A stretch of 64,000 bases of DNA from assembly GCA_002269645.1 (NCBI GenBank), contig NIVC01001935.1, positions 156,805 to 220,804 of the forward strand. The letters run 5' to 3'. Below, piece after piece: positions 3,474 through 6,400 of this stretch (positions are counted from its first letter, which is position 1; the number at the start of each line of letters is the position of its first letter). This stretch comes from Macrostomum lignano. Lineage: Eukaryota. The notes under the pieces are model-generated. The model was not told where the DNA came from. It ran no database searches and worked only from the letters and a program-made list of their open reading frames with translations. A program made the position numbers and the translations under genes.

Positions 3474-6400
3474 ATGAAATCCAAGCTATCCCATTACCCA
3501 AATTCCCTCAGCCTAGCAACTGGCATGACAGGTTCTTCACCAGACTTGCTTGGTCGTCGCATTGAACTAGATGGTCATTTTGGCATTGTGAAATACATTG
3601 GGCCAGTGGGTAGCAGTCGAGACACTTGGCTAGGCATAGACTGGGATGAACCTGAGCGCGGCCGGCACAATGGCACGCACAATGGAGTACAGTACTTTAA
3701 GGTAGGTGTTGCATAAGATTGTTACATGGCTGCTCTCAGTCATGGTTAAATGTGCACTGCATAGGGCCAATAGGTTAATGTTAAAAAGTATATACAGCTG
3801 AAATGGTTTCTGAGAAGCTTTCATACTAGTAACTAATATCATTCGTAGGAAGAATGATAAAAGGCACAACCTAAAAGTAGACCCAGAAGTATGATAAAAG
3901 ACAGCTAGGAAGGAAACCGTCAAACATAAAACCGTCAAGCATGAAACTGTCAAACATGAAACCGTCAAACATGAAACCGTCAAACATGAAACCGTCAAAC
4001 ATTAAACTCTCACAAGTAACACTGGCACTGAATCCCTTCATCCTGCCGAGAACGGCCGTCGCTCTGGTGCCTCGTCTCTCTGTCGCTACTGTCACCGGTT
4101 GCTCTGGTCGCGCTGCACTGGTCATCGAGTCCTGCCGTTGCTGCGCAGCCGTGTCGCTCCGTTAGGACCCGTCAACGCCGGTCCACCTCCGCTCCGCTGT
4201 CCCTGGGTCTGCACTGCAAAGTCCCTAGGAAGACACAGCCTCAGCCAGCGCACGAATCCCACAGCCTACGGAGGGCACCCAGGACCAAACCCTGGCGTCG
4301 CAGGTCGAACAGCGGAAACACCACCATCACCGACATGTAGACCGCTTGGCGACTCCACCGACGAACTCCGTGCCCCGGATACTTGCGGCCGTCGCGCTCG
4401 ACAAACCCAAAAACTTGCAGGAACAACTCCGGGGCGAATTCTCTGAAGTCCACCCGGTTGACAGCACACAGAGGTTTCAGGGCAAAAACTACACAGAAGA
4501 GGGCCCCACGATCACCGCTCCGCACTGCTTGGTGTAAGCGCTTTTTTATCAGCCCGATTCCAGGAATTTCGGCGACTCGAACCGGTGGACGCGGGGTTAC
4601 CTGTAGCTGGCTTATTTTCCGTAGGAATTCTGCGATGAGTTCGGCGCATCCTCCGCACGCTTCCTCTCTTACCCAGCTACTGTCGAGAACGTCGAACCCG
4701 GCCCACTGCAGACGAAACTCTCTTCCCTCCTCAGTTTCGCGCACTGCCAACACATTCAAAACTTCAAACTCCTCCTGGCCACGCTCCGCTACGTTTTCCT
4801 CGTCCGTCACTGCGTAACCAATTTCACTATTCTCCGTCTCGGTTTCGCCCGCTGACTCCCATTGCCGCTGGAACGTTTCTTCGGCCAACCTGTCTCCTTC
4901 TGTCGAGAAAATAATAAGAGTAAACACACTACGTTTAAATTAGGTGTTAAATTGAATAAGGAGCCAGCAAGTCGGCACAAGGCCCAAACCGATATATTTA
5001 TATGACATTAACTTTAGGGGTGCAAGATAAGACAAGGGGGTGGGGTGCGCGACTGAGGAAAAAGGCGAGAACGGAGAGCCAATCAGAACGCAGCAAGGGA
5101 GAGAGAGATAAGAATAACAAGATTGAGCTAGACAGAGAGAGAGAGAAAACAGAGACAAGTGAAGGTGAACTAAGAAATGACTAGGAAAGTCGCGACACTC
5201 CTCCCAAAAAATAGAACATTTTTTTGAATTCTCGAGTACTAACAGAAATTATGAATGAGAGTTCAAAACCCAATAATTTTTTGCAGTAAATTAACAAATT
5301 GTGTACAAATATGACTATGACTATCGACTATGACTATGAATTTCACTACAAAACCTATAGAGTAAATGCAAAATTGACCAAAAAATTTAACATGTGCGAT
5401 TTTAAATAACGAATTATTATAACCAAATTAAAAACTGACTGTATCCTCCCCCCAAAAATTAATTTAATTTTCTTTACATTAAGACTCTGAGGAAAAAAAA
5501 CAAGGACAACAAGTTAGGTTAATTAGTTAAGATGTCCAGGCTTGCGCATCACTTCGTCCCGTAGATCATCCGGCATCTCGTCGTCGTCCAGCATCTCCTC
5601 CGCAATTTCCAGTAGCCTATCGGGCTCCAAAATCATGCCTCCGAACCAATCATATAGCTTTCGGCGGAACGGGCAGGATAGCAGCCGGTACGCTTCCTCG
5701 CACTCCTGGAACTGCTGCTTGAGGATGCTCTGTCGCCTCTCTTGTCGGGATGGGACTCCCGAGCTCGACGGTAGAATGCTTTCCGGATTTCTGAGGCCGT
5801 CGCTTCTTTGGCAACACCCAATCGCTCATACAGATTCGACATCTTAAAACCGTTTAAAACTTCTGCTACTAGTATTAAATGGGTTTATCCGCTCTCTTCG
5901 CCGATATCTCTATACTACGCGTCGTACGCTTGCCCGGATCAGAAGTAAACCGGCTGTCCGAACCGGTCCGGGGGTCTCCGTCGTCGTCGCGGTCGGATAC
6001 CCTCAGGCGGAGGCTCGGGTTCGATCTCCACTTCCTGGTGTGGTTCAATCACTTCAGGCTCCGGTGGCTCCAGCTCAGCCATCCTTTCCTCGTTCTCCAC
6101 CAGTAATCCCTCGTCGCGAATCAGATGAATTCCTTGTCGGACGCCTTCCTCAAGCTCTGGCAGTCTAGCGCAGAAGATATCGTCCTCGTCGTCGTCGTCC
6201 TCAGCATTCTCATCCTGTCGCAGTATCGGCTCAGCAATGCGGAAAAAATCTGCGATAAATTGTCGGTAATACCCGCACAGTCCCAGGAATGACCTTACTT
6301 CCTTGGCATTCTTCGTAGTTGGCCAGTCACGAATTTCGGCAATCTCTTCTGAACTCGTGGAGATTCCATCAGCTGACACTATGTGTCCCAGGAAGGTCAC

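Follow-up and report, generated by a model that had tools for sequence, protein, structure and literature searches.

A Ty3/gypsy element within a host gene

The window, meaning the whole 64,000-nucleotide stretch of Macrostomum lignano DNA that was analysed, carries on its minus strand a Ty3/gypsy element recognisable from Pfam matches to gag, protease and RT upstream of an ORF encoding a J-domain. Its 5' LTR (9007..9757) starts with TG, ends with CA and is 82-86% identical to the LTRs of a sister family described below as family A. A PBS-like sequence 3' of the LTR (8986..9003), with TGG just inside the LTR, is common to the same family. These are followed by gag (7874..8930) with matches to Retrotrans_gag and zf-CCHC, by protease and RT (6217..7730, Pfam), both regions having broken frames, and by the acidic C-terminal tail of pol with its stop codon (5939..6216; 54% identical in amino acids to its family A counterpart). 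The window pol has neither RNase H nor integrase, the match to family A ending at 6217. Beyond the third ORF a 3' UTR (3982..4240) that is 91% identical to family A ends about 140 nt before the position of the family A 3' LTR, and the polypurine tract and 3' LTR are absent. From the Ty3/gypsy order (LTR-gag-PR-RT-RH-IN-LTR, with PBS and PPT) the copy retains only the 5' LTR, gag, PR and RT and, lacking RNase H, integrase and a 3' LTR, it is non-autonomous.

The element sits in an intron of a host gene with CAP-Gly and LRR domains, the CAP-Gly exon lying on the plus strand at 3468..3716 (PF01302) and the LRR exon at 11183-11449. From this domain order we take the gene to be TBCE-like. Contig C455 carries a duplicate of the entire locus. 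Introns of the host gene (window 3468-11410) are packed with tandem arrays of 21-33 nt, and no Rfam match was found in window positions 1-12000.

A J-domain, a chromodomain and a basic domain in one interrupted gene

The first-pass annotation described an ORF of about 106 amino acids starting just past pol on the same strand and this placement holds, with its ATG at 5842 lying 96 nt after the pol stop codon (5939-5941). The J-domain with an HPD motif that was recognised in it is also real. The profile check proposed at the time, using PF00226, gives matches in both frames around a break at ~5730: helices I-II and the HPD motif (5732..5842, minus strand) match profile positions 1-37 (E 2e-10; 41.1 bits, above the cut-off), while helices III-IV and the helices next to them (5540..5731, minus strand) match positions 38-63 with 17.6 bits, a score that is below the cut-off when this part is taken alone. 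The second part is intact on contigs C455 and C255, and the break itself is one small indel that is absent from the homologous C455 and from C255.

A DNA-level search of the genome turned up three close copies and a further 24 at greater distance. On C255 the J-domain frame runs directly into the frame that encodes a chromodomain in the window, so the 638 nt of AT-rich sequence (4902..5539) that split the window third ORF (hereafter ORF3) are an insertion. This sequence is absent in C255 and C2034, present in C455 and is a piece of an unrelated repeat with 83-85% matches at C20 and C297; no target-site duplication was seen around it. Its reading as an intron was rejected, as it has no GT donor and a GC-AG splice breaks the frame. 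The end of the 106-aa ORF at 5523 was created by the insertion, so what had been taken for a complete protein is the front third of a gene. The remainder, also on the minus strand, comprises an acidic linker that continues the C255 frame (4769..4901), an HP1/CDY-like chromodomain (4619..4768; PF00385 above cut-off) whose best solved matches are CBX1, CDYL and Swi6, and a basic C-terminal domain of five helices that belongs to no known family and ends with the stop codon (4241..4558; alignment A2, net charge +10). The frame holding the chromodomain spans 4241-4939 in the window.

It had also been suggested that the ~5730 frameshift may be an assembly error, since host genes in the window carry similar 1-nt deletions. 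One gap against C455 does occur in the CAP-Gly exon stretch but there are none in two other host exons. Whichever origin the frameshift has, the window copy of ORF3 is dead.

An intact sister family and a clade of ORF3 carriers

We refer to the lineage of the window copy as A' and to its sister family as A. The distant copies of the DNA search make up family A, whose elements are ~8.5 kb long and have the order LTR, gag, pol (PR-RT-RH-IN), ORF3 and LTR, with PBS and PPT present. LTR pairs are 99.5-99.8% identical in six of seven copies, the seventh being alignable only in part, and judged by this identity family A is young and its clade recently active. Flanks could be resolved for 23 of 27 copies and gave 18 distinct insertion sites, so the copies are transpositions and not assembly duplicates. 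Here ORF3 is one frame of 328 amino acids with a J-domain (PF00226 at 3-64, 59 bits), an acidic linker, an HP1-like chromodomain (PF00385 at 151-201, 48 bits) and the C-terminal domain. The full 326-328-aa frame with HPD is found in 17 of 28 family A loci, a count in which one locus is marked broken solely from a substitution in the end motif, and a protein identical to the family A ORF3 is recorded under Macrostomum lignano. The pol frames of family A give no PF00385 match and do not have the chromodomain at the integrase C-terminus that characterises chromoviruses, which locates the reader domain on ORF3.

Protein searches of the genome led to further families, and seven deep lineages (A/A', B/B', B2, C/C', D, F/F' and G) carry an ORF3 with J-domain, acidic region and shared C-terminal domain, always on the pol strand and about 100-600 nt past pol. 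The HPD motif is kept in six of them and lost in G, where the J-domain scores below the PF00226 cut-off and the match to the C-terminal domain is weak; despite this loss family G has ~17 integrase matches. In a tree of RT-RNase H (quick method, midpoint root) the seven lineages together with families H and I form one clade with an aLRT of 97, RT identity between ORF3 lineages being 58-64%, and four families sampled from further out in the tree (K, M, N, O) gave no match to the J-domain or C-terminal domain. H is a deletion derivative that retains only a TatD-like part, and the J-domain is absent from family I and from one C' copy. Family I (L139, L140; ~4016-4800, element orientation) has another, different frame of 200-250 codons after pol.

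The tree of the C-terminal domain broadly parallels the RT tree. A phylogeny against host J-protein genes, another of the checks proposed at first, grouped 13 of the 14 J-domains from elements on a single branch of weak support (61/98), with B2 separate, and singled out no host donor gene. Among the matches examined there was no host gene with the ORF3 C-terminal domain. A profile of this domain run against 1.84 billion proteins returned 10 matches: two repeat artefacts (P0010 and P0012) that were dropped, two Macrostomum lignano gene models and six Logan or JGI proteins, with a J-domain in four of these six and in a cluster mate of a fifth. P0011 stems from a 7008-nt JGI contig and the pol P0089 from one of equal length, and both group with D; from the equal source, equal length and matching tree positions we infer that the two are neighbours. 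Scans of metagenome and viral data for the DNA context of the outside relatives found none, and among the predicted proteins searched the distribution of the ORF3 family looks narrow.

At L114 (C575) and L115 (C3488) an uninterrupted frame of 1449 codons has an N-terminal J-domain with the rest unrecognised, and has five genome matches. L105 and L113 are C-terminal fragments of ORF3 without pol. Going by motif resemblance we take the frames beside these fragments to hold a SWIM-type zinc finger and the catalytic box of a ubiquitin protease, possibly from a DNA transposon. In P0005 (L094) an internal deletion has joined pol of B2, with the frame preserved, to a point midway through the J-domain. 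P0005, like P0004, is an example of a chimeric public gene model put together from element ORFs.

Domain architecture of ORF3

All seven members of alignment A1 have the HPD motif and a PF00226 match above cut-off. The AlphaFold model of the J-domain shows the four-helix fold and fits solved J-domains with an rmsd of about 1 A. No ORF3 has a Pfam match to a G/F region, zinc finger or DnaJ_C and for this reason we class the protein as C and not as A or B. Predictions were confident for the J-domain and the C-terminal domain (pLDDT 87 in family A), and the chromodomain region was of low confidence with a shallow alignment. The C-terminal domain is basic (net charge +5 to +17 across lineages), is the most conserved part outside the J-domain and has an R/G-rich loop in all lineages, and the linkers are acidic (net charge -9 to -46). 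Its best structural match (Z 8.0, rmsd 3.0, 84 aligned) lies within the helical-bundle background, with no match above background in PDB, BFVD or Atlas and no Foldseek E < 0.6, so that ORF3 appears to define a new basic domain that is well folded in prediction.

The ORF was at first said to occupy the env position. The third-ORF place after pol is correct but the product is not an env, as 10 of 10 ORF3 proteins lack a signal peptide and TM anchor (19-residue KD hydropathy maximum 0.94-1.56, N-terminal maximum 0.75).

Other modules vary between lineages. The chromodomain occurs in one lineage of the seven only (A/A') and its best solved matches are Swi6, HP1/CBX and CDY rather than integrase chromodomains. 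Its aromatic cage is complete in the window lineage A' (F/W/F) and has two of three residues in family A (Y/W/V); in P0003 the third aromatic is replaced by L. Lineages lacking the chromodomain often show a motif of hydrophobic then acidic residues, which we presume to resemble phospho-SIMs. Of 10 linkers 5 have it, against a shuffle mean of 0.21, as do F and F'; the search pattern was drawn up once the motifs had been inspected, and the rows are related to one another. This SIM-like motif belongs to lineages B, D and F, is absent from A, B2, C, G and P0008 and does not occur in four whole pol tails. In G and F/F' (L142:4320-5993, L146:5113-5766) a TatD-like domain (PF01026; F' 32.7 bits, G 23.3 bits) follows the C-terminal domain. 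It is degenerate, with the N-terminal part of the profile missing and presumably with most metal ligands absent. We found nothing in the literature joining TatD, LTR retrotransposons and gypsy.

ORF3 is under purifying selection and may be exchanged as a cassette

Between A and A' dN/dS was 0.12 in the J-domain, 0.25 in the chromodomain and 0.19 and 0.15 in the C-terminal domain (Fisher p 2e-8 to 5e-3), the first three values being rough, since dS approaches saturation everywhere but in the last part. The pair D1 and D2 gave 0.25 at a dS of 0.12 (p 3e-6), pol controls gave 0.19-0.37, and J-domain pairs between deep lineages gave 0.20-0.59 where computable with three of ten pairs non-significant. 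Variant codons among 15 family A copies comprise 26 synonymous and 9 non-synonymous changes. ORF3 is under purifying selection, with dN/dS of 0.12-0.30 in the folded domains.

A neutral origin of the ORF, as host cargo or as a processed gene inserted by chance, could be argued from the window copy, broken in three ways, and from the loss of the gene in some relatives. However, dN/dS well below 1 across active families largely refutes this, and the retention of ORF3 over lineages so far apart in RT and the lack of its C-terminal domain from the host genes examined also speak against it; we consider neutral cargo extremely improbable. The proposal of a captured J-domain gene under selection in the third-ORF position is supported: Pfam recognises the domain, the ORF is kept in related copies and its decay is not neutral.

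Comparison of the window (4241-6226) with L037 shows that A and A' are mosaic, with a dS of 0.11-0.17 in gag-pol, near saturation in the pol tail and most of ORF3, and 0.14 in the last 55 codons. This pattern suggests that a 3' cassette has been exchanged between the two lineages. Because gag-pol is recent yet the ORF3 cassettes are near-saturated in dS, ORF3 seems exchangeable without a matching Gag.

The exchange bears on a possible function of ORF3 within particles or the pre-integration complex, where it would bring Hsp70 to Gag assembly or uncoating and its chromodomain would tether integration to heterochromatin as in chromoviruses. The chromodomain of chromovirus integrases has a role in integration targeting. 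The ORF3 and pol trees broadly agree, which fits co-inheritance, and a diffusible protein supplied by other families could explain why some elements manage without a J-domain or HPD. Chromodomains are known on chromovirus integrases (PMC13524379), and J-proteins are employed by viruses in replication and in folding (PMC13254874). Against this, the cassette appears to have been swapped without the corresponding Gag, and multi-copy relatives exist without the J-domain (H, I) or the HPD motif (G), which makes particle assembly less likely. As to integration targeting, the chromodomain-bearing A showed no excess of tandem repeats beside its insertions: the tandem-repeat mean, a weak proxy, was 0.22 in the flanks of A against 0.32 in B and 0.18 in C (p 0.53; 18, 19 and 18 distinct flanks respectively, with four of 27 A stretches dropped for an unresolved LTR end). 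On balance we think this role unlikely. Help in Gag folding or particle assembly was the function first suggested for the J-domain and it is not favoured here, since the HP1-like chromodomain and basic C-terminal domain fused to it, which had been overlooked, point to a nuclear nucleoprotein as the target.

Splicing signals and expression

In A, B, B', D and the window an AG stands immediately 5' of the ORF3 ATG (in the window a candidate splice-acceptor-like site at 5843..5850, minus strand), against a background of 51 of 482 ATGs; in B2 and C255 it is shifted 5' by one base, and in G and C by 7-17 nt. A donor-like site, GGTAAGC (candidate at 9268..9276 in the window, minus strand), is common to the LTRs of families A, B and C and of the window copy, with looser forms in B2 and D and no occurrence of the motif in 35 kb of element bodies. 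Taken as sequence signals these suggest that the ORF3 message is spliced, and non-envelope ORF3s are typically spliced (PMC5408684). Contigs crossing the start of the family A ORF3 in four runs from four studies showed no splice joint or spliced leader among the rows listed, the RNA status of these runs being guessed or unrecorded and contigs being apt to drop rare forms. The family A ORF3 was found in 20 of 24 listed runs, none of which is recorded as RNA.

A choice between splicing and its avoidance, as implied by the donor- and acceptor-like sites, would suit a nuclear RNA factor comparable to Rev or CERV, in which genomic RNA that has escaped splicing would be bound by the basic domain, while the J-domain with Hsp70 would strip retention or splicing factors so that this RNA is exported. 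The CERV protein of Cer1 has the same genomic position and a likely spliced origin (PMC10309623). It would also agree with such a factor that the R/G-rich-loop domain is the best conserved non-J part throughout the clade, and the degenerate TatD-like nuclease fold of F and G could bind nucleic acid. The chromodomain is explained only indirectly, as a tether to transcription sites, and no spliced form was present among the listed joints. We regard RNA export as improbable.

A possible nuclear co-chaperone adaptor

Class C J-proteins bring Hsp70 to whatever their other domains bind. The additional modules of ORF3 all probably bind chromatin, SUMO or nucleic acid, and there is no DnaJ substrate domain or membrane anchor among them. 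On this ground the reading we favour, at a probability of roughly 0.45, is that ORF3 is a class C J-protein that may serve as a nuclear adaptor, bringing in the host's Hsp70 so that repressive complexes on the element's chromatin are taken apart or remodelled. ORF3 would be translated from a subgenomic RNA spliced from the LTR donor to the acceptor next to its ATG. Nucleic acid or nucleosomes would be the ligand of the basic C-terminal domain, which may also hold a nuclear localisation signal, and docking would be provided by the chromodomain on methylated H3 tails in A and by the SIM-like motif on SUMOylated silencing factors in B, D and F. There the J-domain would trigger ATP hydrolysis by Hsp70 and release the repressor, much as the SV40 T-antigen J-domain acts on Rb-E2F.

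Nuclear Hsc70 is a target of the T-antigen J-domain and of HSV ICP22 (PMC13254874), and in Arabidopsis DNAJ1/2/3 with SUVH1/3 antagonise silencing (10.64898/2026.09.14.751395). The latter source also reports that J-proteins serve silencing too (SILENZIO) and that some chromatin J-proteins act without HPD, so the direction of the effect, for or against silencing, is a guess. As G has lost HPD and H and I have no J-domain, and all three are multi-copy, Hsp70 recruitment appears dispensable in cis. A bolder form of this nuclear adaptor reading, which we hold only tentatively and rather doubt, is that the clade encodes an anti-silencing factor targeting Hsp70, with the J-domain attached to an exchangeable reader module (HP1-like chromodomain, SUMO-interaction motif or dead TatD fold), such that the host chaperone would take heterochromatin apart where copies of the element itself reside.

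The heat-shock response offers a different use for Hsp70, whose titration by ORF3 could prolong HSF activity on heat-inducible LTRs. Macrostomum lignano has heat-inducible LTR families bearing HSEs (PMC12801592), and a phage J-protein stabilises sigma-32 (PMC13254874). However, canonical HSEs number 0 in 11 LTRs from six ORF3 lineages and the window, and we rate a link to heat shock as very unlikely. The heat-stress tables of PMC12801592 have PF00226 in six rows and PF00385 in none; these rows are not mappable to ORF3 families, since the gene-model ids that came up in the searches are absent from the tables.

Relation to known systems and significance

ORF3 resembles the non-envelope ORF3s of other Ty3/gypsy elements (GDSL and DEDDy in rotifers, PMC5408684; CERV of C. 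elegans Cer1, PMC10309623) in being a sense ORF between pol and the 3' LTR and in lineage-specific gain and loss and modular content. Unlike these, it carries a co-chaperone domain for Hsp70 together with a helical domain that is new, and neither 'DnaJ' nor 'Hsp' occurs in the main text of PMC5408684. With the J-proteins of viruses (polyomavirus T antigens, phage class C proteins and the HSV ICP22 mimic; PMC13254874) it shares an N-terminal J-domain with HPD on a targeting region that is not of DnaJ type. It differs from them in being encoded by a retrotransposon, in having no helicase and in showing no LxCxE motif by eye in the aligned ORF3 families; 'transpos' has 0 matches in the text of PMC13254874.

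Like chromoviruses the A/A' elements are Ty3/gypsy with a chromodomain, but here it is HP1-like, sits on a separate ORF and is confined to one lineage, and the RT of the ORF3 clade groups apart from the chromodomain-bearing plant-type pol (P0090). The chromatin J-proteins of Arabidopsis (DNAJ1/2/3-SUVH1/3, SILENZIO-MBD5/6 and the PKL-associated JDPs) likewise couple a J-domain to a reader of repressive marks. They are however host genes and mostly separate polypeptides, whereas ORF3 fuses reader and J-domain and is selfishly encoded, and beyond the J-domain no homology between the two was found.

Our literature search, which covered mainly openly accessible papers, found no transposon-encoded J-protein and no fusion of a J-domain with a chromodomain, and the whole text of PMC12801592 has 0 matches for DnaJ, Hsp40, J domain or chromo. 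ORF3 is a real and selected accessory gene family that is apparently undescribed. Third ORFs and viral J-proteins were each known already and the new element is a J-protein encoded by a transposon. The means by which LTR elements of animals withstand H3K9me- and SUMO-based silencing are a largely open question for which ORF3 provides a concrete candidate, and if the anti-silencing role is true it would be the transposon counterpart of polyomavirus T antigen. Natural controls are available in families with and without the chromodomain, HPD or the entire gene, and transgenic LTR reporter work has been published for Macrostomum lignano. Dozens of the genome's 'DnaJ genes' are in fact copies of transposons, and counts of its J-proteins are inflated as a result. 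The genome also contains intronless SUMO genes arranged in inverted pairs (L154-L160, contigs C1551, C1565 and C2589).
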